Positions 13,026 through 44,459 of a DNA stretch of 64,000 nucleotides are shown in pieces. The notes below the pieces were generated by a model. The model saw only the letters and a program-made list of their open reading frames with translations. It did no database searches and had not been told where the DNA came from. Positions within the stretch are counted from its first letter, which is position 1. Every line of letters starts with the position of its first letter. Origin of the DNA: Escherichia phage JK1; the sequence record MZ436830.1; one strand, given 5' to 3'. The translations under genes were made by a program, and so were the position numbers.

Positions 13026-13326
13026 TTTCTTCTCGGTCAAATCGGTGTTTACAATGGCGGCATTTATAACGAAGATTACTAGTCTGCCAATGAACCAATT
13101 GCACCTGTTCAGTTCCGCATTCAGGGCAATTAGGAACGTTTTTAGAAGCACGTTCGCGGCGTTCAACCATGACCATTACAGAATCCCAATTAATAGGGCT
13201 GCTATAATCATCACAACCATGAATCTTTCCACGCATTTCCAAATCGTCTTCTTCACCAGCCATAATAATTTTAATTAGACTGGAATTACTAGAAGCTGCA
13301 ATATCTTCTAATAGACGCTTTTTCAT
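13012..13326 (-). CDS. Zinc-ribbon protein
   Basis: 104 aa; CPECG..CRHCKH four-Cys pattern. Confidence 0.5.
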
Positions 13327-14249
13327 TTCAATACCTCAATAGCATTACGTAAACCATTTGCTTTTGCATTAAGAGCTTTTAACAATTTGGTGTGTTCTGC
13401 AATTTGGGCTTCAACTTCAATCAAACGAGTATTGAGATATTCGCGTTCTTCTTTCATAGTATCATTCCCATGATTGGGTTTTGACGTAGGTTTAAATTCA
13501 CTAGGGTCCTTTAACTTAATAACAACTTTAGTTTCAAACAACGAAAGACCATAATTTGTATTATCATCAAAGGATTCAACTACATCCATTTTAGATAATA
13601 ACATACGCAAATTATAAGTCAAAGAACGAATTGTTTCATTGTGTTTATTAGCTTCACGCGGTTTCATATACGGAAGATTTTTATATATCTCGTGCGGAGC
13701 ACAGATAATAACTGATAATTCAGATGATTTATTCTGGGATGATGGAATGAATTTAGCCGTAACCCAGTCTTTTACATTCACATTAATAGTACGATCATCG
13801 CCATGACAAAACAGTCTACGAGAATGCTTAAAAAGCATATTCACGTTATTATTGAATTCGTGTGAAAACTCACTAGTAAATTTTTCTTTACTATTTTTAG
13901 AAAACCATTCTTCTAAATAAGTTCTTTTCACGTCGTTAATAATATTAAATGTAACAACACTAGCATTTGATACATTAGTCTCAATGTAGCTTGGATACAT
14001 AAATTTTTTAATGTTCTCACGAGCTACAGTAGAAGATAACACACGAGAACGCTTGAACCACTCAAGTAAAGAACCAAGAGATTGTGAATACGCATTCTGA
14101 GTATCCTTACAGATATGATTTTCCTGTCCAGTATAATCTAAAAAATCACGAAGAATATTATTGATTACTGCTCTGTGTCCGATTTGATAATTACGGTGTT
14201 TAGTAATAAGACTGTCAAAATAATCAATATAATGTTTACGAGTTTTCAT
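13323..14249 (-). CDS. Hypothetical protein with C-terminal coiled-coil
   Basis: 308 aa; first of four consecutive 300-350 aa ORFs that each end in a heptad-like helical tail. Confidence 0.6.
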   Translation of the reverse strand: MKTRKHYIDYFDSLITKHRNYQIGHRAVINNILRDFLDYTGQENHICKDTQNAYSQSLGSLLEWFKRSRVLSSTVARENIKKFMYPSYIETNVSNASVVTFNIINDVKRTYLEEWFSKNSKEKFTSEFSHEFNNNVNMLFKHSRRLFCHGDDRTINVNVKDWVTAKFIPSSQNKSSELSVIICAPHEIYKNLPYMKPREANKHNETIRSLTYNLRMLLSKMDVVESFDDNTNYGLSLFETKVVIKLKDPSEFKPTSKPNHGNDTMKEEREYLNTRLIEVEAQIAEHTKLLKALNAKANGLRNAIEVLK

Positions 14250-14301: not shown

Positions 14302-15354
14302 TTACTTAATTAACTGTAAAGCTTGTTCCAGACGATCAAGACGATTAACGGATTCTTCCCAAATCTTTTTAGCCTGCTCATATTCTTTGTGCGCTTTATT
14401 AGAAATTTCTAGAACTTCTTTATAAGCTTTTTCTAGTGCAATAACTTCTGGACGAATTTCTATCGGTTCAGGTGAATCGTCAAGACATTCCATTAGTTCC
14501 TCAAGGGTAGTTTCTTCTTTAGGAGTATTCACAATTTCATCACATTTTTGTTGGTAAATTTCTTTATCAGTCGGTGAGTACGCACACTTTACTTCACGAA
14601 GACTAATTACAATTTTATATCCTTCCCATCCGCATATATTCTTAAAAGGATATGTATGAATACTTTTTACAGTTTCCATACAGCCCAAAGCCATCTCTAA
14701 TTGATGAGTTATAGTGCTAGCAATTGAGAAAAATTTATTAATGTTCTTTTGATTAGCTGCTGGTGTAAAAAATCCATAATTCACAAAAATAGCTACTTTA
14801 TTTTTATCAAGCTCATATTCTTTTACGATAATCATATCAGAAGCCAAAGGATGAATTTGACGATAATCGCCATAACATAATTTAGAAGCTGATTTTAGAA
14901 TTTGTCCTTTGAAAAGTCTGAAATTACTAATCCAACGACGAGTAAAAATATTCTCAGGGTCTTCTTTGATATTAAGATGATAAGAATTAACATCACCGAA
15001 CCAATTATATCCTACTACATCTTTAGTTCGTTTAATTTCTTTCCCAAAATTACCAAGAATATCCCTATTAACCAAATATGAAAGAAGACGAGACCCTTTA
15101 AAGGTTTTCTTAATGGCATCTTTATCTGTACGACTAGAAATTTCACGAACTTCATGAATAAATTTGCCGGAAGAAACAATACTTGCATCAGTATTATTGA
15201 GCCATTGATTGATAATAGAAAGAACACTATTTTGGCCAAACAGCGGTATAACTTTATCATCAATAACGCTATTGAATGATTTGATATATTCGTTACGAGT
15301 CATAATAATCTCCTCAGTAGAAAGTAAGAACATTATACCACATCCTTGTGGCAA
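14302..15354 (-). CDS. Hypothetical protein with C-terminal coiled-coil
   Basis: 350 aa (start may be internal MTRNEYIK). Confidence 0.6.
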   Translation of the reverse strand: MPQGCGIMFLLSTEEIIMTRNEYIKSFNSVIDDKVIPLFGQNSVLSIINQWLNNTDASIVSSGKFIHEVREISSRTDKDAIKKTFKGSRLLSYLVNRDILGNFGKEIKRTKDVVGYNWFGDVNSYHLNIKEDPENIFTRRWISNFRLFKGQILKSASKLCYGDYRQIHPLASDMIIVKEYELDKNKVAIFVNYGFFTPAANQKNINKFFSIASTITHQLEMALGCMETVKSIHTYPFKNICGWEGYKIVISLREVKCAYSPTDKEIYQQKCDEIVNTPKEETTLEELMECLDDSPEPIEIRPEVIALEKAYKEVLEISNKAHKEYEQAKKIWEESVNRLDRLEQALQLIK

Positions 15355-19799: not shown

Positions 19800-19824
19800 A
19801 AAAAAGGGAGCCCGAAGGCTCCCT
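19800..19824 (-). terminator. Intrinsic terminator-like hairpin with C(UUCG)G loop and U-run on the minus-strand RNA
   Basis: Plus agggagcc-cgaa-ggctccct at 19805-19824, preceded by aaaaa; lies just downstream of the 337-aa ORF stop. Confidence 0.5.
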
Positions 19825-19825
19825 A

Positions 19826-20839
19826 TCATTTATAATAACTTTGGTGGTTTTCAAGATAGACCTTCTCAAGGAAGTCATCCCAGAAACTCATGTCTACTGT
19901 TTTAGGCATACCATTCTTAGAAGCTTCAGTAGATGCTGCTTCTACTTGATCGACCACATCTTCCAAAAACTCTTGAACTGTTTTAAATGGATGTTTACCC
20001 AACTTCACGTCGAGAATAAATGGAGCATCTTGGAGTGGATAAATCAAGTCGCCAGTTTTGTAAATTTCCAATAGTTGAAGTCCACCACGACAAGCATGAC
20101 TTAGTGCTTTCCAATCAATACCTTCATTAGCTTCGGCTTTACGAGCACGTTCACCATATTCAGCATCTAATTTGTTCAGTGACTGCTTAAGCTCAATAAG
20201 AGAAAGCGTTGTCTGATATTTACGACCCAGCACTGTATAGAACGTTTGTGGACCTGTTTTCTCATGATTATGGAACACCCATTCACAGAATTCGTTTTCT
20301 GGAAGACGATGCTTAATATCTTCAACTTTAGTACGACGCTGCTTAATGGAACCGTCTTCTTGGTAATCAACCCATTGCTCAGGGATTTGATTAACTACTT
20401 TCAATACATCGCGTAATGCAGCCAAACGAGAACCCTTGACACCGTATTTAGAAGCTTGCTTGCGGACATATCCTAAATAGGATTTCATGTTAGTCGTATA
20501 AAAACGAGAACGGTTGTCTTGAATAAACTTCCACACATCAGGCAAATCAGATTTAACCACTAGTTTAGGTGGAGTATGAAGCATATCCAATGCTACAGTT
20601 TCACCATCTGCTGCTAATTTAAAGAAATATTTAAGACTGTATAGTTCATGGTCAATATCATCTTTAGTGTTTTTAGATGATGTATTGTTAGTATTTTTAC
20701 TCATATGCTCTTTAACATTTCCGACAAGAATATCGCGAGCAGGAGGAACAAAGATTTCTTTAAAATCTACATCAGATTCTGGGGTAGAAGTTCCATAAAG
20801 ATGACTACCAAAATAGCTTTTCATTACTGTTTTCATCAT
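19826..20839 (-). CDS. Hypothetical protein (T4 nrdC.11-like position)
   Basis: 337 aa ORF. Confidence 0.6.
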   Translation of the reverse strand: MMKTVMKSYFGSHLYGTSTPESDVDFKEIFVPPARDILVGNVKEHMSKNTNNTSSKNTKDDIDHELYSLKYFFKLAADGETVALDMLHTPPKLVVKSDLPDVWKFIQDNRSRFYTTNMKSYLGYVRKQASKYGVKGSRLAALRDVLKVVNQIPEQWVDYQEDGSIKQRRTKVEDIKHRLPENEFCEWVFHNHEKTGPQTFYTVLGRKYQTTLSLIELKQSLNKLDAEYGERARKAEANEGIDWKALSHACRGGLQLLEIYKTGDLIYPLQDAPFILDVKLGKHPFKTVQEFLEDVVDQVEAASTEASKNGMPKTVDMSFWDDFLEKVYLENHQSYYK

Positions 20840-21297
20840 TCAGCCTTATATTCAATAACAGGACATACTTTAGCTTTACGAGCTTTTAAAAATTCAACGA
20901 TAATCGATTTCTTGGGTTGAATAGGAGGTAAACCTTTATACGCCCTATCAATATTTTCTACGTGTAAAGCATAATCCTTTTTCCATTTATAATCTTTATA
21001 TTTTTCACGCAAATGTGCAGGAATAACAAATGAACCGATAATAAGTAAAACAACCAAAAGCGCAAGTATAAATGCCGATGGAAGAAGAGTCCATAAACTA
21101 CCGAAAATAAGCCAACGTTGTAGGCTTTCTGCACAAATAATTGTTAGCCCTACGAGTATAGCACACCCAAAAATAGAAACGAAAAATGTAGGAATGGCAA
21201 TAGACCAAAAATATGCGCATAGTGTCTTAGGTCGTTGCCATTCATCGTTAAACAATTTGAATAATTTATAGTGCCAAGAGTTTTCATTAATAATCAT
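20836..21297 (-). CDS. Membrane protein (multiple TM segments)
   Basis: 153 aa; hydrophobic stretches AIPTFFVSIFGCAILVGLTIICA and LLALLVVLLIIGSFVI. Confidence 0.55.
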   Translation of the reverse strand: MIINENSWHYKLFKLFNDEWQRPKTLCAYFWSIAIPTFFVSIFGCAILVGLTIICAESLQRWLIFGSLWTLLPSAFILALLVVLLIIGSFVIPAHLREKYKDYKWKKDYALHVENIDRAYKGLPPIQPKKSIIVEFLKARKAKVCPVIEYKAE

Positions 21298-21299
21298 AA

Positions 21300-21821
21300 T
21301 TATCCTTTCATTGAAGGCGTAACGGTTGTTAAATACTTAATCATAGCTTCAGCTTCTGATTTTGATAATGAAATTTCTCCATTGTTTTGACGAATAGAAA
21401 TAAAATCCGGATGACGGTCACCACCAGCTTTTAAAACACACATATAAGTATCAGTTTCACCTTCAATATTTGAAATGATTGAAGCAGTTCCACATGAATG
21501 TGGTTTTTGATAAATCAATGCAGCTTTTCTTCCGCCATTTGACTGCTCATAGGCTTTTAATACATCAAGCAAATCAGTTCTTTTATCAATAGCTAAAATG
21601 TTATTTTCATCTTCAATGTTAAATCCTTCGGATACTTCATAAAGCGTTACCCATAAATCACCAATGTCAATAACAGCATTTACTTTTCCACGGCTTTCAA
21701 GAGTATGACAAATTTTCTTGATTTCGTCATAACTCATTTTAATAATATCATCTCCTTGAATAAGGAAGATGTCATTTTTAAATTCAACACGAATTAAACC
21801 ACTTTCACTTGAAATAAACAT
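21300..21821 (-). CDS. Hypothetical protein, paralog of the following ORF
   Basis: 173 aa; C-terminus EAEAMIKYLTTVTPSMKG resembles that of 21828..22382. Confidence 0.5.
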   Translation of the reverse strand: MFISSESGLIRVEFKNDIFLIQGDDIIKMSYDEIKKICHTLESRGKVNAVIDIGDLWVTLYEVSEGFNIEDENNILAIDKRTDLLDVLKAYEQSNGGRKAALIYQKPHSCGTASIISNIEGETDTYMCVLKAGGDRHPDFISIRQNNGEISLSKSEAEAMIKYLTTVTPSMKG

Positions 21822-21827
21822 ATTTCC

Positions 21828-22382
21828 TCACTTTGAAATCATAGTTGGAATAACAGAATCAAGATAAGTCTTTAGTGCAATAGCTTCGTCTTTGGTAAAT
21901 GTGACAATATGTGCTCGAGAATCATCAATTTGGCGAACAAGTACGACATCGCCATCTTCATAAGAAGTCTTGACATCCAAAGTCGTAGTATAATTTGCAG
22001 CTACTGGATTAATAATGCTAGCACCACGATCTTTAGCCCATTGAAGTTTAGCCTTTTCGGGTGTTTCGACTGTTTCAGATTCCAAGAATTCTTTCACCTT
22101 GGCAACGAATGTTGCCCAATTGTTGATAGAAAGACACATAAATTCAGTTTCAATATTACCGCCGTAAAGGCCACGATAAAAACGAACTTGGAGGTCGCCT
22201 GTAATATTAGTTACACCGGTAACTCCTGAGGGAGCATAAGATAAAATCGCAGCCAGTTCCATAGGAAGAATAGTAATACTATCGTCTTCCTGCGTCAGAA
22301 CGTATACATTATCACGTTTTTCGATAACCAGGTCACCGAACAAATCAGTTGTTTCAATTACAGCTTTCATATTATTTACCAA
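21828..22382 (-). CDS. Hypothetical protein, paralog of the preceding ORF
   Basis: 184 aa; C-terminus EAIALKTYLDSVIPTMISK. Confidence 0.5.
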   Translation of the reverse strand: MVNNMKAVIETTDLFGDLVIEKRDNVYVLTQEDDSITILPMELAAILSYAPSGVTGVTNITGDLQVRFYRGLYGGNIETEFMCLSINNWATFVAKVKEFLESETVETPEKAKLQWAKDRGASIINPVAANYTTTLDVKTSYEDGDVVLVRQIDDSRAHIVTFTKDEAIALKTYLDSVIPTMISK

Positions 22383-22557
22383 TTAAAGTTTCAATATAAG
22401 AATCAAGATTTACTTTAGCTTCTTCCATAAGAGTTTTGTATTTAATCTTGTTAGCATGTCCGGAGAAAGCTGATTCATCAATAATTGTTGATGTATGAAC
22501 AGCTTTACTATACGTCTCAATTAATTCTCTTAATTTAAAAGCCTGCTCACTTGTCAT
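22372..22557 (-). CDS. Small helical protein, member of the xEQxxKLxELI paralog family
   Basis: 61 aa; MTSEQAFKLRELIETY N-terminus. Confidence 0.45.
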   Translation of the reverse strand: MTSEQAFKLRELIETYSKAVHTSTIIDESAFSGHANKIKYKTLMEEAKVNLDSYIETLIGK

Positions 22558-22689: not shown

Positions 22690-22719
22690 ACTATACCATA
22701 ACCTTGCCAACTTGTAAAC
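22690..22719 (-). promoter_or_regulatory. Early promoter-like motif (GTTTAC-N18-TATAGT)
   Basis: Plus gtaaac 22714-22719, actata 22690-22695. Confidence 0.35.
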
Positions 22720-22721
22720 CA

Positions 22722-22895
22722 TTAAATGACGTTTTCGATAAAATTCTGAAGCTTTGTATGAGCATCAACCATGATTTTCATTTCTTCCTTTGCGAAAGCT
22801 GTACCTCTTTCACGAGAAGAACATTCATAGTCAGAAACTGCATTAGCATATTCTTCAATTAGCTTCATTAAAAACATCTGCTTTTCAGTTTTCAT
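22722..22895 (-). CDS. Small helical protein, not in the ORF track; possible member of the same paralog family
   Basis: 57 aa read manually: MKTEKQMFLMKLIEEYANAV..; start overlaps the upstream ORF end (alternative ATG at 22877). Confidence 0.3.
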   Translation of the reverse strand: MKTEKQMFLMKLIEEYANAVSDYECSSRERGTAFAKEEMKIMVDAHTKLQNFIENVI

Positions 22896-23079
22896 TATTC
22901 CACCTAATCATTTCAAGATATTGAACTAACTTAGCTTTGGATTTATCCAAATCCTTTTTAGCTGCTTCTATACCGTCGTATGAATATCCTTCACAATGCT
23001 CAACTGCCAATTGATATGAATCTATTTCAATATCACGTGCTAATTTAATGATTTTTTCAAACTGTTCGCGTGTTAGCAT
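22885..23079 (-). CDS. Small helical protein, member of the xEQxxKLxELI paralog family
   Basis: 64 aa; MLTREQFEKIIKLARD N-terminus. Confidence 0.45.
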   Translation of the reverse strand: MLTREQFEKIIKLARDIEIDSYQLAVEHCEGYSYDGIEAAKKDLDKSKAKLVQYLEMIRWNNEN

Positions 23080-23081
23080 AA

Positions 23082-23321
23082 TTAAACTCTCGTATTATGA
23101 TCGATAATTTCATCAAGAAACATATCTAACGCTTCTAAAGCATTATCAACTTTAGTTTCAAAGTCTTTAATGCCTTTATTCGAAATACCCGATGAATACC
23201 AAGCAAAGTCAATCAGCTCTTCATCTGCTTTACGAATTGAAGCCACTAATTCCTTGATTTTATCTGCTTGCTCTATACTAATCATTATTCCACCACATAT
23301 GACAGAGAGAATATTGCACAC
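23082..23321 (-). CDS. Small helical protein, member of the same paralog family
   Basis: 79 aa ORF; internal start gives [17 protein letters not shown]. Confidence 0.45.
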
Positions 23322-23541: not shown

Positions 23542-23564
23542 AAAAAAGTCTCCCGAAGGAGACT
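23542..23564 (-). terminator. Intrinsic terminator-like hairpin, C(UUCG)G loop plus U-run
   Basis: Plus agtctcc-cgaa-ggagact at 23547-23564, preceded by aaaaa. Confidence 0.5.
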
Positions 23565-40833: not shown

Positions 40834-41658
40834 TTAGATATTTGACCAGACTTTGTTTGCAGAGAAACGTTTTCCTTTTGAAACGAACTGCTGAAGTGGC
40901 ATCAACACAACGTTCGCCCAGTCTTTCGGGGCGATTTCAACAAGGCTACCCATAATATTACCAGGTATATATGCCTTAATCATTTGGTCTGCACCCCTAA
41001 ATCCTTTCACTTGACTCCAATCAATTTTTAATTTCGTTTTATTAGTAATAGTAGGTGTATTTGCATATTGCTTTAAAAGCTCTTCTAGGAATTGCTGACG
41101 AGCTTTAGGTGGAATATAGTGCAAGTTTAATCCGTACATTAAATTATGCTTACCTAAACCAAGGTAAATTATCAAAGGAAATTTATCCCAGTAAGGAAGA
41201 GTTTCCTTGTGTTTAGCATCATAAGCAAAAGCATATATTCGTCCCGGCTGCGGGCGAACAACTTTATGTCCTTTTACTTGCTTAATAGTTTCAGCAAACC
41301 ACTTTCTGGTTTTATTATTAATTGCTGCACCTTCATTACGAATTTTATCGCGCAATGTTTGTCTGAATGAATTTATCATAAGCAGTTGTCTTTCTTGCTT
41401 ATTGAGCTTATTCATTGGTTTTGATTCAAGCTTTTGAATCTTTTCAGCTGTTTTAATTCCTGAAGCATATTTTGACATTGCCGAAGTAAACGTAGAGTAT
41501 TTGATTCCTCTTTCTTCAGCAAATTGCTTTCCTGTCATTCCTTTTGCTTTGGCCTTTTTATATTCAAGACCTATTTGAATCCATTTCTTTTCGTTTAATG
41601 ATTGCTTAACCTTTGGAACTTGGGGAGTGCTTTCATTAATTATTTGAAAAATAGCCAT
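40834..41658 (-). CDS. 2: DNA end-protector protein gp2
   Basis: 274 aa, basic; size and position as T4 gp2. Confidence 0.75.
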
Positions 41659-42110
41659 TATGCCCCCTTAAAGCCAAGAGCTCGTAATCCATCTTCTGTT
41701 AGAATTCTAAATTTTATTCCACGCTTTTCAGCTAAAGCTTGCGCTGCTTTCCATTTGTCGGTATTAACGGAATATGTATAAATTTCATTCATAAATCTTT
41801 TCTTCGCTGCAGTTGTTAGATGTGCTGGTTTAACCGGTGGTTGTGTTTCTTTTTTAGGTTTTATTTCAATAAAAAATTCTTGCCCAGAAGAATCTTTCAT
41901 CCAAATATCCATGAAGTATCTACGTTTTTTCCCTTCTGCATTACAAAAATAAGGAATTACTGCTGTTTCACTACCCCATGCAATAATTTCTGGATTTTTA
42001 TCTAACCATTCAAAAAAGAATTTTTCCCAATTTGATCTATACGTAATTTTTTTAGGGTCACCTCTATACTTTGATATATTTTTAGGAACCCATTTTCCAG
42101 AATATGCCAT
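41658..42110 (-). CDS. 4: Head completion protein gp4
   Basis: 150 aa; divergent from gene 53 across a late-promoter region. Confidence 0.7.
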
Positions 42111-42121
42111 TGGATTCTCCT

Positions 42122-42129
42122 TATAAATA
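42122..42129 (+). promoter_or_regulatory. Late promoter TATAAATA for gene 53
   Basis: tataaata at 42122-42129, 29 nt before the ATG. Confidence 0.55.
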
Positions 42130-42136
42130 GATAATA

Positions 42137-42144
42137 TATTTATA
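42137..42144 (-). promoter_or_regulatory. Late promoter TATAAATA for gene 4 (divergent)
   Basis: Plus tatttata at 42137-42144. Confidence 0.45.
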
Positions 42145-42157
42145 AACAGGAGGGCCC

Positions 42158-42748
42158 ATGCTCTTTACATTTTTTGATCCGATTGAATATGCGGCCAAAA
42201 CGGTGAATAAAAACGCGCCGACTATTCCTATGACAGATATTTTTAGAAACTATAAAGACTATTTCAAACGTGCTCTTGCGGGATACCGCTTACGTACTTA
42301 TTATATTAAAGGTTCACCACGCCCGGAAGAATTAGCAAATACTATATATGGAAATCCACAGTTGTATTGGGTTTTATTGATGTGTAATGATAATTATGAT
42401 CCATATTATGGATGGATTACTTCACAAGAAGCTGCTTATCAAGCATCTATACAAAAATACAAAAATGTGGGTGGAGATCAGATAGTATATCATGTGAATG
42501 AGAACGGTGAAAAATTTTATAATTTAATATCATACGATGATAATCCATATGTTTGGTATGATAAAGGCGATAAAGCTAGAAAATATCCTCAATATGAAGG
42601 AGCACTTGCTGCGGTCGATACGTATGAAGCTGCTGTTCTTGAAAATGAAAAACTTCGTCAAATAAAAATAATAGCAAAATCAGACATCAATTCATTTATG
42701 AACGACCTTATACGTATAATGGAGAAATCTTATGGAAATGATAAGTAA
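42158..42748 (+). CDS. 53: Baseplate wedge protein gp53
   Basis: 196 aa; first gene of the plus-strand baseplate operon. Confidence 0.8.
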   Translation: MLFTFFDPIEYAAKTVNKNAPTIPMTDIFRNYKDYFKRALAGYRLRTYYIKGSPRPEELANTIYGNPQLYWVLLMCNDNYDPYYGWITSQEAAYQASIQKYKNVGGDQIVYHVNENGEKFYNLISYDDNPYVWYDKGDKARKYPQYEGALAAVDTYEAAVLENEKLRQIKIIAKSDINSFMNDLIRIMEKSYGNDK

Positions 42749-44459
42749 TAACCTTAATTGGTTTGTTGGTGTTGTTGAAGATAGAATGGACCCATTAAAA
42801 TTAGGTCGTGTTCGTGTTCGTGTGGTTGGTCTGCATCCACCACAAAGAGCGCAAGGTGATGTAATGGGTATTCCAACTGAAAAATTACCATGGATGTCAG
42901 TTATTCAACCTATAACTTCTGCAGCAATGTCTGGAATTGGAGGTTCTGTTACTGGACCGGTAGAAGGAACTAGAGTTTATGGTCATTTTTTAGACAAATG
43001 GAAAACTAACGGAATTGTCCTTGGCACGTATGGTGGAATAGTTCGCGAAAAACCGAATAGACTTGAAGGATTTTCTGACCCAACTGGGCAATATCCTAGA
43101 CGTTTAGGAAATGATACTAACGTACTAAACCAAGGCGGTGATGTAGGATATGATTCCTCTTCTAATGTTATTCAAGATAGTAACTTAGACACTGCAATAA
43201 ATCCTGATGATAGACCACTATCAGAGATTCCAACTGATGATAATCCAAACATGTCAATGGCTGAAATGCTTCGCCGTGATGAAGGATTAAGACTAAAAGT
43301 TTATTGGGATACTGAAGGATATCCGACAATTGGTATTGGTCATCTTATCATGAAGCAGCCAGTTCGTGATATGGCTCAAATTAATAAAGTTTTATCAAAA
43401 CAAGTTGGTCGTGAAATTACAGGAAATCCAGGTTCTATTACAATGGAAGAAGCGACGACTTTATTTGAGCGTGATTTGGCTGATATGCAACGTGACATTA
43501 AATCACATTCTAAAGTAGGACCAGTCTGGCAAGCTGTCAACCGTTCTCGCCAAATGGCATTAGAAAATATGGCATTTCAGATGGGTGTTGGCGGTGTAGC
43601 TAAATTTAACACAATGTTAACTGCTATGTTAGCAGGAGATTGGGAAAAAGCATATAAAGCCGGTCGTGATTCATTGTGGTATCAACAAACAAAAGGCCGT
43701 GCATCCCGTGTTACCATGATTATTCTTACGGGGAATTTGGAATCATATGGTGTTGAAGTGAAAACTCCAGCTAGGTCTTTATCGGCAATGGCTGCGACTG
43801 TAGCTAAATCTTCTGACCCTGCTGACCCTCCTATTCCAAATGACTCGAGAATTTTATTCAAAGAACCAGTTTCTTCATATAAAGGCGAATATCCTTATGT
43901 GCATACAATGGAAACTGAAAGCGGACATATTCAGGAATTTGATGATACCCCTGGGCAAGAACGATACAGATTAGTTCATCCAACTGGAACTTATGAAGAA
44001 GTATCACCGTCAGGAAGAAGAACAAGAAAAACTGTTGATAATTTGTATGATATAACCAACGCTGATGGTAATTTTTTGGTAGCCGGTGATAAAAAGACTA
44101 ACGTCGGTGGTTCAGAAATTTATTACAACATGGATAATCGTCTTCACCAAATAGATGGAAGCAATACAATATTTGTACGTGGCGATGAAACTAAGACGGT
44201 TGAAGGTAATGGAACTATCCTAGTTAAAGGTAATGTTACTATTGTAGTTGAAGGTAATGCTGACATTACAGTTAAAGGAGATGCTACCACTTTAGTTGAA
44301 GGAAATCAGACTAATACAGTAAATGGAAATCTTTCTTGGAAAGTTGCTGGGACAGTTGATTGGGACGTTGGTGGTGATTGGACAGAAAAAATGGCATCTA
44401 TGAGTTCTATTTCATCTGGTCAATACACAATTGATGGATCGAGGATTGACATTGGCTAA
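42732..44459 (+). CDS. 5: Baseplate hub / cell-puncturing protein gp5 with lysozyme domain
   Basis: 575 aa; internal lysozyme domain MAEMLRRDEGLRLKVYWDTEGYPTIGIGHL (paralog of e); C-terminal VEGN-type beta-helix repeats. Confidence 0.9.
   Translation: MEMISNNLNWFVGVVEDRMDPLKLGRVRVRVVGLHPPQRAQGDVMGIPTEKLPWMSVIQPITSAAMSGIGGSVTGPVEGTRVYGHFLDKWKTNGIVLGTYGGIVREKPNRLEGFSDPTGQYPRRLGNDTNVLNQGGDVGYDSSSNVIQDSNLDTAINPDDRPLSEIPTDDNPNMSMAEMLRRDEGLRLKVYWDTEGYPTIGIGHLIMKQPVRDMAQINKVLSKQVGREITGNPGSITMEEATTLFERDLADMQRDIKSHSKVGPVWQAVNRSRQMALENMAFQMGVGGVAKFNTMLTAMLAGDWEKAYKAGRDSLWYQQTKGRASRVTMIILTGNLESYGVEVKTPARSLSAMAATVAKSSDPADPPIPNDSRILFKEPVSSYKGEYPYVHTMETESGHIQEFDDTPGQERYRLVHPTGTYEEVSPSGRRTRKTVDNLYDITNADGNFLVAGDKKTNVGGSEIYYNMDNRLHQIDGSNTIFVRGDETKTVEGNGTILVKGNVTIVVEGNADITVKGDATTLVEGNQTNTVNGNLSWKVAGTVDWDVGGDWTEKMASMSSISSGQYTIDGSRIDIG

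Follow-up and report, generated by a model that had tools for sequence, protein, structure and literature searches.

The window analysed here, a stretch of 64,000 nt from Escherichia phage JK1 (MZ436830.1), belongs to a Tequatrovirus (T4-like) genome and shows 98–99% identity to Tequatrovirus genomes. Two adjacent open reading frames on its minus strand, 173 and 184 aa long, had been described in an original prediction as tandem paralogues of unknown function with a common C-terminal motif and a local duplication as their origin; the list of open reading frames bears out their positions, their strand and the peptide ends quoted for them. Gene A (21300..21821) encodes an A-type MobD.1/y05I family member of 173 aa, as predicted, and has a strong Shine-Dalgarno sequence (GAGGAAatATG). 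Gene B (21828..22370), the positional orthologue of T4 mobD.1 (y05I), has its ATG at 22370 and encodes 180 aa. The length of 184 aa rests on a mechanical TTG start at 22382, to which the open frame extends and from which B would overlap the upstream gene, whereas database copies (P0014 with 100% identity, and the e11/2 annotation) start at the ATG and have 180 aa. Copies of A that are 93–99% identical are found in about 430 phage records, and hundreds of sequenced T4-like phages carry genes 93–100% identical to A and B. A third paralogue was not detected in the window below E = 1, according to phmmer and to repeat HMMs run with --max.

Both genes belong to a tightly packed minus-strand unit that consists of mobD.2, DUF7438, B, A, a membrane protein gene, nrdC.11 and a terminator. 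The DUF7438 gene (22372..22557, minus strand; 61 aa, PF24219 at 1.4e-15) lies directly upstream of B with a 1-nt gap. The best sigma-70-type (early-type) promoter match, a candidate from a consensus scan (22690..22718, minus strand; TTTACA, 17-nt spacer, TG-TATAGT, 10/12), is located upstream of mobD.2, DUF7438, B and A. Directly downstream of A is the gene for a predicted membrane protein of 153 aa (20836..21297, minus strand; phrog_944), which corresponds to RB32ORF096c, annotated as 'replaces mobD'. Its stop overlaps the start of nrdC.11 (ATGA), the last gene of the unit (19826..20839, minus strand), annotated as a nucleotidyltransferase of the RlaP family (PF10127), with the Pfam RlaP domain found on its orthologues; T4 NrdC.11 is named as a member of this family in a preprint (PMC12776372). 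An intrinsic-terminator-like hairpin after nrdC.11 (19805..19824, minus strand; 8 bp, 6 of them G-C, then a T run) probably ends the unit, and the e11/2 annotation marks the same hairpin as a terminator. Two labels found on neighbouring or homologous genes, 'molybdopterin-guanine dinucleotide biosynthesis protein MobD' and 'helicase loader', are annotation artefacts (gene-name confusion or weak PHROG names).

The proposed relationship between A and B is upheld by pairwise alignment, which is significant and essentially full length (BLASTP, 29% identity over 173 aligned residues, E = 2e-8 in a single comparison). Both proteins also carry the same two Pfam domains, in N-then-C order and far above the gathering threshold. 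T4_y05I_N (PF24449, cutoff 24.9) scores 113.5 bits in A (7.7e-33) and 109.9 bits in B (1e-31), and T4_y05I_C (PF24448, cutoff 27) scores 83.1 bits (1.8e-23) and 62.9 bits (3.7e-17), respectively; under the same two models T4 MobD.1 has 146.7 and 73.7 bits. In A, the domains span residues 2–95 and 102–171. In addition, both A and B match phrog_1502 at about 1e-67. The C-terminal motif noticed in both proteins, [FL][ST]KxEAxALxxYLxxV[IT]P[ST]M, is indeed common to them and is a hallmark of the whole MobD.1/y05I family, including stand-alone C-domains; in an 18-sequence alignment Y163 and L164 never vary, and the conservation of P169 is 90% or more. A and B further resemble T4 MobD.1 in length and in their place between mobD.2/DUF7438 genes and nrdC.11 (RlaP), as family synteny requires. 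Judged by sequence, A and B separated long ago within the MobD.1 (UniProt y05I) family. This family consists of small early proteins, falls into about 30 clusters and is confined to T4-like (Straboviridae) phages of enterobacteria.

This family is already catalogued (Pfam PF24449/PF24448, PHROG 1502), and the likeness of the A-type protein to mobD.1 is already recorded in the RB14 GenBank note ('similar to mobD.1'). PADLOC gave no match for A or B, and NCBIfam gave noise only. A literature search for experimental work on mobD.1, y05I or nrdC.8 found none, the single text match naming mobD.1 as a flank of mobD. When two close homologues of the Dhakavirus type were scanned against Pfam (P0048 at E <= 1, L031 at E <= 0.1), the 'DUF3846' label that one GenBank record gives to a Dhakavirus homologue was not reproduced. 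The 9 weak C-domain profile matches in a protein of 1572 aa (P0060) are spurious, and this protein consists of an unrelated, Cys-containing repeat arrayed in tandem (...GCDSIVTTVLTV...).

In comparison with T4 MobD.1, codons 1–135 of B represent a Mosigvirus-like allele, and A represents a separate, deeper branch. According to the neighbour-joining tree, A branches outside all first-position orthologues, i.e. the B-type, Mosigvirus-type, T4-type and Dhakavirus-type proteins. B is 73% identical to the Mosigvirus-type allele, 48% to T4 MobD.1, 34% to the Dhakavirus type and 31% to A, and A is 28% identical to T4 MobD.1; the two copies are thus not closer to each other than to the orthologues of other genomes, as recent duplicates would be. 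Moreover, each type occurs alone elsewhere (A-type in locus L024, T4-type in T4, B-like type in L009). A recent in-place tandem duplication with redundant, drifting copies would fit the adjacency, common orientation, similar length and shared motif of the two genes, and the frameshifts in the first copies of RB14 and T2 are a hint of redundancy. Given an A–B identity of about 30% versus 48–73% between B and its orthologues in other genera, the outgroup position of A and the single-type loci, such an origin is, however, highly improbable, and A, conserved at 93–99% identity across about 430 genomes, is not drifting. Of the original prediction, the tandem paralogues therefore stand, while the recent duplication does not. 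Because of the low identity, the tree position and the separate occurrence of each type, the pair either arose by duplication very long ago or consists of two diverged alleles that recombination between phages has placed side by side, and it predates T4's own arrangement.

Recombination is visible within B itself. According to the blastn segment map and per-segment identities, codons 1–135 (21964..22367, minus strand) form a divergent allelic cassette, uniformly about 70–76% identical at the protein level to the Mosigvirus-type allele and about 34–41% identical to T4; they have no blastn-detectable similarity to RB14 or T4, with both flanks being 95–97% identical. The last 45 codons (21828..21963, minus strand), which encode a hairpin and the terminal helix FTKDEAIALKTYLDSVIPTMISK, are a conserved 3' end: they show about 97% DNA identity to the T4-type mobD.1 of RB14, in one blastn segment running on through A, the membrane gene and nrdC.11, and 89% DNA and 78% protein identity to T4 MobD.1. 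B is a recombinant that joins a Mosigvirus-like allele (codons 1–135) to a Tequatrovirus-type 3' end. Neither a MotA box nor the late-promoter sequence TATAAATA, either of which might cause the conservation of the mobD.1 3' end, is present inside A or B. In comparison with phages RB32 and RB14, A shares 98% identity with its RB14 equivalent RB32ORF097c, and the membrane protein shares 99% with RB32ORF096c; in place of the window's B allele, however, RB14 has a T4-type mobD.1 (two pieces, annotated as truncated) and an extra Phage_tudor gene. In RB14 and T2, mobD.1 is matched by tblastn in 2–3 pieces. A hybrid gene with a MobD.1-type N-domain fused to an A-type C-domain (P0011) is the only copy in 6 contigs, and the locus is a recombination hot spot.

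Unlike the window, T4 lacks A except for a stub: after mobD.1, a ribosome-binding site and the first six codons of A remain. The stub, GAGGAAATATGTTTATTTCAAGTGGAA, is identical in T4 and RB14 and has one mismatch in the window; T4 then diverges into mobD, and its homology to the window resumes at the nrdC.11 start. Comparison of these sequences shows that the T4 locus is derived, a mobD homing-endonuclease cassette having taken the place of the membrane gene and of A beyond the stub.

AlphaFold models of A and B (mean pLDDT 74 and 85.3, respectively) share the same strand/helix layout, b4-a / b4-a / b5-a. In A, the N-terminal domain (21537..21818, minus strand; pI 4.4) has a pLDDT of about 88 over residues 1–95 (E2-29, H31-44, E49-78, H81-94), while the C-terminal domain, or repeat 3 (21309..21518, minus strand), with five strands and a long helix and ending in SKSEAEAMIKYLTTVTPSM, is less confident (pLDDT 50–74). 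The corresponding segments predicted for B are E2-34/H36-43, E52-82/H85-97 and E108-159/H160-178. Repeats 1 and 2 are predicted to form a confident, fast-evolving and very acidic N-terminal domain, and repeat 3, which carries the C-terminal motif, is predicted to be the conserved core, with homology to repeat 1 as well as to the DUF7189 proteins encoded nearby. According to hhalign, repeats 1 and 3 are related with a probability of 89% (E 2e-6), and repeat 2 has no detectable relation to either of them (probability below 2%). Stand-alone C-domains exist as proteins of 67–87 aa. Full-length members have a pI of 4.2–5.8 and a net charge of −3 to −22, and their N-domains have a pI of about 4.3 and a net charge of −9, the most conserved N-domain residues being E, Q and D, e.g. 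in a Q-[ED]-D-D hairpin.

The strand-helix order of the PC4-like/PUR/Whirly fold is found in A and B at the level of predicted secondary structure only. No Foldseek match to a solved structure is significant (E <= 1e-3), the best E-value being 0.015. Pur-alpha repeat III is retrieved at E 0.09–0.2 with an rmsd of 4.6–7 Å; for 8chw_A the E-value is 0.21 (prob 1.0, TM 0.75 on target), and for 5fgo it is 0.09–0.16 (TM 0.65–0.68 on target). The TM value for 2gia is 0.24, and that on target for 3cm1_C is 0.43. Other PC4-/Whirly-like matches include MRP1/2, an SsgA-like protein and an ssRNA-phage coat protein; the PP7 coat protein has five strands, as does repeat 3. The top matches by E-value (sliding clamps, Ctf4, Rtt106/Pob3 PH domains and CRABP2) were rejected as beta-rich noise with TM of 0.1–0.2 and rmsd of 15–24 Å. 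At the sequence level, neither A nor, at E <= 10, a 29-sequence profile matches any PDB entry, and the PUR, Whirly and PC4 Pfam families give no match at E <= 1.

According to the Pfam label 'putative transcription factor', A and B could be Pur-alpha/Whirly/PC4-like regulators that bind single-stranded nucleic acids. The layout of three predicted b4-a units, which corresponds to the type I plus type II arrangement of Pur-alpha, agrees with such a role, as does the presence of PUR repeat III, MRP1/2 and the ssRNA-phage coat protein in the Foldseek list; the early unit, furthermore, also encodes the RNA-acting RlaP enzyme. All full-length members, however, are acidic, with an N-domain pI of about 4.3 and conserved E/Q/D residues, the structural matches are not significant, and PUR, Whirly and PC4 proteins show no sequence relation to A and B. 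SsgA-like proteins, which belong to the same fold class, are protein binders. We therefore regard nucleic-acid-binding regulators, in which repeats 1–2 would bind ssDNA or RNA, repeat 3 would dimerise, and early phage or host gene expression would be modulated, as unlikely. As for the label itself, the strong acidity of the proteins makes it doubtful.

The explanation that we favour, with a probability of about 50%, is that A and B are a diverged MobD.1 pair with a three-repeat fold, acting as dimerising accessory proteins linked to the membrane protein. Repeat 3 would be the dimerisation module, of the PC4-like 'type II' or Pur-alpha repeat III kind, and A and B may form homodimers, or heterodimers of the tandem paralogues, via the conserved amphipathic C-terminal helix. 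These dimers would function in concert with the neighbouring membrane protein, and the variable acidic head would recognise a target that changes and is probably a protein. According to a 2020 review, the b-b-b-b-a topology defines the PC4-like/PUR fold, one repeat by itself is not expected to fold and must pair, and repeat III of Pur-alpha homodimerises (PMC7549692). The lower pLDDT of repeat 3 in the monomer models is compatible with helix swapping or with dimerisation of a lone repeat, though it is not evidence for either. Pur-alpha differs, however, in that repeat 3 of A and B has five strands and both proteins are strongly acidic. Finally, A and B would be accessory or host-interaction factors that the phage can do without, and not transcription factors: T4 lacks A as well as the membrane gene, and mobD.1 is broken in RB14 and T2.

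Regarding the membrane protein, a gene bearing y05I_C stands immediately upstream of its gene in 23 of 23 non-T4 loci, taken from Tequatrovirus, Dhakavirus, Jiaodavirus, Kanagawavirus, a Kosakonia phage, other T4-like phages and metagenome contigs; three of these loci were chosen via the membrane protein itself, independently of y05I. The membrane protein occurs in 918 phage records. Adjacency is, however, weak evidence of a functional link, because a conserved gene order is the rule among T4-like phages, and T4 keeps mobD.1 without the membrane gene. In L024 the membrane protein has diverged strongly (no more than 35% identity to any of three reference membrane proteins), whereas the A-type C-terminus is 86% conserved, and therefore no obvious co-variation is seen.

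A and B might instead belong, as accessory subunits, to a module for RNA repair or RNA modification around the RlaP protein nrdC.11 and the nrdC.10 ATPase, since a y05I gene, the membrane gene and RlaP follow one another in this order in every locus examined and RlaP enzymes, as the preprint describes, act on RNA (PMC12776372). One to three unrelated genes, however, separate the membrane gene from RlaP in several genera (L005, L025, L029 and L030), and mobD is inserted between them in L016 and T4. The preprint describes operons with RtcB and other RNA ligases, and no y05I-like partner was found in the portion of its text that was searched; its figure of >10,000 RlaP sequences compares with about 30 y05I clusters confined to T4-like phages (PMC12776372). 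An RNA-repair role is thus very unlikely, and the accessory proteins linked to the membrane protein remain our preferred reading.

Repeat 3 has a further relative in DUF7189 (PF23819), a small phage protein of 63–71 aa whose gene, in Dhakavirus, Jiaodavirus and others, directly precedes a y05I or y05I_C gene. It shares the hairpin-helix motif I-x-Q-D-D-D-x-I-x-L-x-x-x-E/Q-x-x-A-L, and hhalign relates it to repeat 3 with a probability of 88.6% and to repeat 1 with one of 64%. DUF7189 lacks, however, the YLxxVIPTM tail, and its model scores 23.9 bits on A and B, below the cutoff of 27. By tblastn of L011–L013 (three Tequatrovirus loci with the tandem pair) and RB14, no copy of a DUF7189 protein was found. 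More speculatively, and with rather low probability, y05I and DUF7189 may be a phage-specific radiation of b-b-b-b-a (PC4-/PUR-like) repeats, in which the conserved repeat 3 builds homo- and heterodimers of the tandem paralogues and docks them on the membrane protein, and a recombination-swapped, hypervariable acidic head targets a variable host factor. The 2020 review regards the combination of type I and type II within one chain as unique to Pur-alpha (PMC7549692). If the radiation reading were true, full-length y05I members would reproduce this one-chain architecture, the host target might be, e.g., a defence or surface-associated protein, and the locus would be an arms-race cassette.

As a discovery the pair adds little, with copies in hundreds of phages, the families already defined and the mutual similarity noted in GenBank. 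What is added is, first, that the T4 locus is the derived state, its second paralogue and membrane gene having been erased by the mobD homing-endonuclease cassette, and second, that the conserved unit is not the whole protein but the C-terminal repeat, which is positionally tied to a membrane protein. The analysis also provides a testable structural model, with three PUR-like repeats and dimerisation via repeat 3, and the strong acidity casts doubt on the 'putative transcription factor' label. These results may serve as a guide to assigning functions among the many uncharacterised early genes of T4-like phages.

ORF A (21300-21821, minus strand, 173 aa) and ORF B (listed as 21828-22382, minus strand, 184 aa) are both present, with the C-terminal peptides quoted for them. 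They align end to end in BLASTP (29% identity over 173 columns, E 2e-8), and both match Pfam T4_y05I_N (7.7e-33 for A and 1e-31 for B) and T4_y05I_C (1.8e-23 and 3.7e-17, respectively) far above the gathering scores, as well as PHROG 1502 (about 1e-67 each). Thus, their similarity is real homology and not a matter of composition. As for the start of B, the TTG codon at 22382 overlaps the upstream gene, while the ATG at 22370 lies one base past the upstream stop codon and is the start in the e11/2 annotation and in the 180-aa database copies (P0014, 100% identical). No further copy of A or B was found within the 64-kb window.

Both proteins are members of an already catalogued family, and their mutual similarity is already annotated. 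The T4 mobD.1 product (181 aa) matches T4_y05I_N and T4_y05I_C at 3.5e-43 and 1.6e-20, respectively, and its gene adjoins Phage_T4_Y05J (mobD.2), where the Pfam name 'y05I' would place it; by position, B is the orthologue of mobD.1. The counterpart of A in phage RB14 is RB32ORF097c, whose GenBank note reads 'similar to mobD.1', so the paralogy had been recorded before; that of the window's membrane-protein gene is RB32ORF096c, annotated 'replaces mobD'. The y05I family is very small: searched exhaustively with HMMER, 1.84 billion representatives yielded 30 clusters, all of them short phage proteins save one spurious repeat protein. The literature search found no paper giving MobD.1/y05I a function. 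Several GenBank/RefSeq records of MobD.1 homologues (H86, H93, H95, H97, H99, and P0025) read 'molybdopterin-guanine dinucleotide biosynthesis protein MobD', an annotation error arising from the gene name 'mobD'.

The 1.8 kb around the pair matches Tequatrovirus (T4-like) genomes, e.g., vB_Eco_QOTSP and e11/2, at 98-99% identity, and G+C is about 35% across the window. A and B lie on the minus strand in the early-transcribed nrdC-tk region, where the order in the direction of transcription, named after the e11/2, T4, and RB14 annotations, is tk, rI.1, rI, rI.-1, mobD.5-mobD.2, the 61-aa DUF7438 gene, B, A, the 153-aa membrane protein, nrdC.11, and nrdC.10. According to a consensus scan, the pair would be transcribed from a putative early-type promoter at 22718-22690 (minus strand) to a putative terminator at 19824-19805 (minus strand), for which there is also an e11/2 terminator annotation; no middle or late promoter motifs were found inside A or B. 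Two G+C-rich hairpins (19805-19824, the terminator candidate just named, and 23547-23564), terminator-like on both strands, flank the mobD.5-to-nrdC.11 block that contains B and A. A possible middle promoter of nrdC.11 is the MotA-box-like ATGCTTTA at 20965-20972 (minus strand), which lies about 125 nt upstream of that gene, within the 3' portion of the membrane-protein gene; across the whole window, MotA-box matches exceed expectation (40 vs 19.6). GC skew turns from negative to positive at about 41000-43000, as would fit a change from early genes on the minus strand to genes on the plus strand.

Other tandem paralogues are also seen. The 61-aa ORF, mobD.2a, mobD.3, and mobD.4 (22372-22557, 22722-22895, 22885-23079, and 23082-23264, respectively, all minus strand) match Pfam DUF7438 (E 1e-12 to 1e-17) and are a second tandem array, directly upstream of B and A; the PHROG label 'helicase loader' on one copy is dubious. 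The nrdC.3 and nrdC.4 products (308 and 333 aa; 13323-14249 and 14302-15303, minus strand) are distant paralogues (BLASTP E 9e-8, 23.5% identity across 268 aa). The nrdC.5 product is DUF7235, and BLASTP of nrdC.5 and nrdC.6 against the rest of nrdC.3-nrdC.6 gave no similarity, though all four are similar in size.

Regarding the age of the A/B split, A shows 31% identity with B and 28% with T4 MobD.1. For B, identity is 73% with a Mosigvirus-type allele, 48% with T4, and about 34% with Dhakavirus-type genes. In a neighbour-joining tree all first-position genes, i.e., those in the mobD.1/B slot upstream of A, exclude the A-type clade, which branches outside. As a sole copy, the A-type is found in contig L024 (P0010, 57% identical), the T4-type in T4, the B-like type in loci L009 and L010, and the Dhakavirus-type in L014-L022. 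A total of 443 phage records carry A-type genes and 732 carry B/MobD.1-type genes, so the tandem state marks a large Tequatrovirus subset. Judged from these sequences, the pair appears to be a deep duplication, and a recent redundant one is highly improbable. The original prediction of a local duplication of a gene of unknown function thus stands for the homologous pair and its unknown function, but a local duplication in the sense of a recent one is not supported.

Recombination has also shaped the locus. In blastn against RB14, a block without similarity (22367-21964, i.e., B codons 1-135) has 97% identity on either side, and the downstream 97% segment takes in both the last 45 codons of B and, in RB14, the 3' end of the T4-type mobD.1. 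Compared by segment, B keeps 69-76% identity with the Mosigvirus-type allele over its whole length; with T4-type genes its identity is 32-41% over segments one to three but 78-84% in the final one. B is therefore recombinant. Its converse is database protein P0011, a fusion of a T4-type N-terminal part with an A-type C-terminal part (L026:3001-3540; metagenome contigs L026-L028). In six independent contigs P0011 is the sole copy, flanked by a Phage_tudor gene on one side and the membrane gene on the other, and its sequence points to a tandem pair collapsed through recombination between paralogues.

In T4, the mobD.1 stop is followed right away by GAGGAAATATGTTTATTTCAAGTGGAA, which is A's ribosome-binding site and first six codons, identical to RB14 (Shine-Dalgarno plus MFISSG; L002 about 13257-13283, minus strand, between mobD.1 and mobD). 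Beyond this relic T4 diverges into the mobD cassette, and alignment resumes only at the nrdC.11 start. Therefore, the pair was present in T4's ancestor, and A and the membrane gene gave way to the mobD homing-endonuclease cassette; the T4 arrangement shows A to be dispensable. At locus L016, mobD lies downstream of the membrane gene and upstream of nrdC.11, without the loss seen in T4. As for the first copy, tblastn matches to mobD.1 fall into two pieces in RB14 (L008 2498-3024) and three in T2 (NC_054931.1 54413-54934), probably reflecting a frameshift, a pseudogene, or a sequencing error. Together with the RB14 annotation of this gene as truncated, the pieces suggest that mobD.1 is likewise dispensable. 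In metagenome contig L024 (SRR8048117_1869), identity to the window is 98% for nrdC.10 but only 77% for RlaP, 57% for the A-type gene, and 35% for the membrane protein; its y05I, membrane, and RlaP genes form a divergent cassette with sharp bounds.

In both the A and B lineages the N-terminal part changes fast and the last 45 residues are conserved. The C-terminal repeat also occurs as stand-alone proteins of 67-87 aa with the same tail motif. At all 23 non-T4 loci examined, a gene bearing y05I_C, whether full-length, hybrid, or stand-alone, is followed directly by a membrane-protein homologue, with an overlap or a gap of at most about 40 nt. Three of these loci (from Jiaodavirus Klebsiella, Kanagawavirus Enterobacter, and Dhakavirus Salmonella phages) were picked via the membrane protein, and the y05I_C gene is directly upstream in all three. 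In the window, A adjoins the membrane gene (20836-21297, minus strand) and B is the extra upstream copy. The RlaP gene nrdC.11 lies zero to three genes beyond the membrane gene, and a role as RlaP accessory is improbable.

AlphaFold2 models built with family alignments have a mean pLDDT of 74 for A (about 88 in the N-domain, 50-74 in the C-domain) and 85 for B. Both share the order of four strands plus helix (repeat 1), four strands plus helix (repeat 2), and five strands plus long helix (repeat 3, the C-terminal domain). According to profile-profile comparison, repeats 1 and 3 are homologous (probability 89%, E 2e-6) and share the motif v-I-x-Q-[DE]-D-D-x-I-x-L-t-x-x-E-A-x-x-L, while repeat 2 showed no sequence relation to the others. 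Repeats 1 and 3 are also related to the 71-aa DUF7189 protein, whose gene lies just upstream in other genera (88.6% probability against repeat 3). The PC4-like/PUR-like class is defined by a b-b-b-b-a repeat; in Pur-alpha, repeats I-II make one domain and repeat III dimerises, and a lone repeat is unlikely to fold by itself (PMC7549692). From the topology of the models alone, ahead of Foldseek, such a fold would be expected. Foldseek gave no significant match for either model (best E-value 0.015). Non-significant matches of B include Pur-alpha repeat III 8chw_A (TM 0.75 on target, prob 1.0) and 5fgo (TM 0.65-0.68), with E of 0.09-0.2 for these PUR matches, as well as MRP1/2 and an ssRNA-phage coat protein; A matched an SsgA-like protein, again not significantly. 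No solved chain matched by sequence, so that membership of this fold class is a reasoned lead and not a demonstrated fact. Matches in a viral structure library were family members and uncharacterised phage proteins only.

As for function, the Pfam label 'putative transcription factor' presumably comes from the Whirly/PC4/PUR-like shape, and a nucleic-acid-binding regulator would suit that label. However, acidity is common to all full-length members (pI 4.2-5.8, net charge from -3 to -22), and in the N-domains, with a pI of about 4.3, E, Q, and D make up most of the conserved residues, a composition that argues against nucleic-acid binding and makes such a regulator doubtful. We instead propose, with a probability of roughly 0.5 for the whole and less for each step, that A and B are dispensable early accessory proteins. 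Repeat 3 would be a dimerisation module, forming homodimers or heterodimers between tandem paralogues or with DUF7189, and would act jointly with the neighbouring membrane protein, while the variable acidic head would bind a changeable target, probably a protein.

What is new for the family is modest: the three-repeat PUR-like model, the recombinant B, the six-codon relic of A in T4, and a conserved unit made of the C-terminal repeat and the membrane protein.
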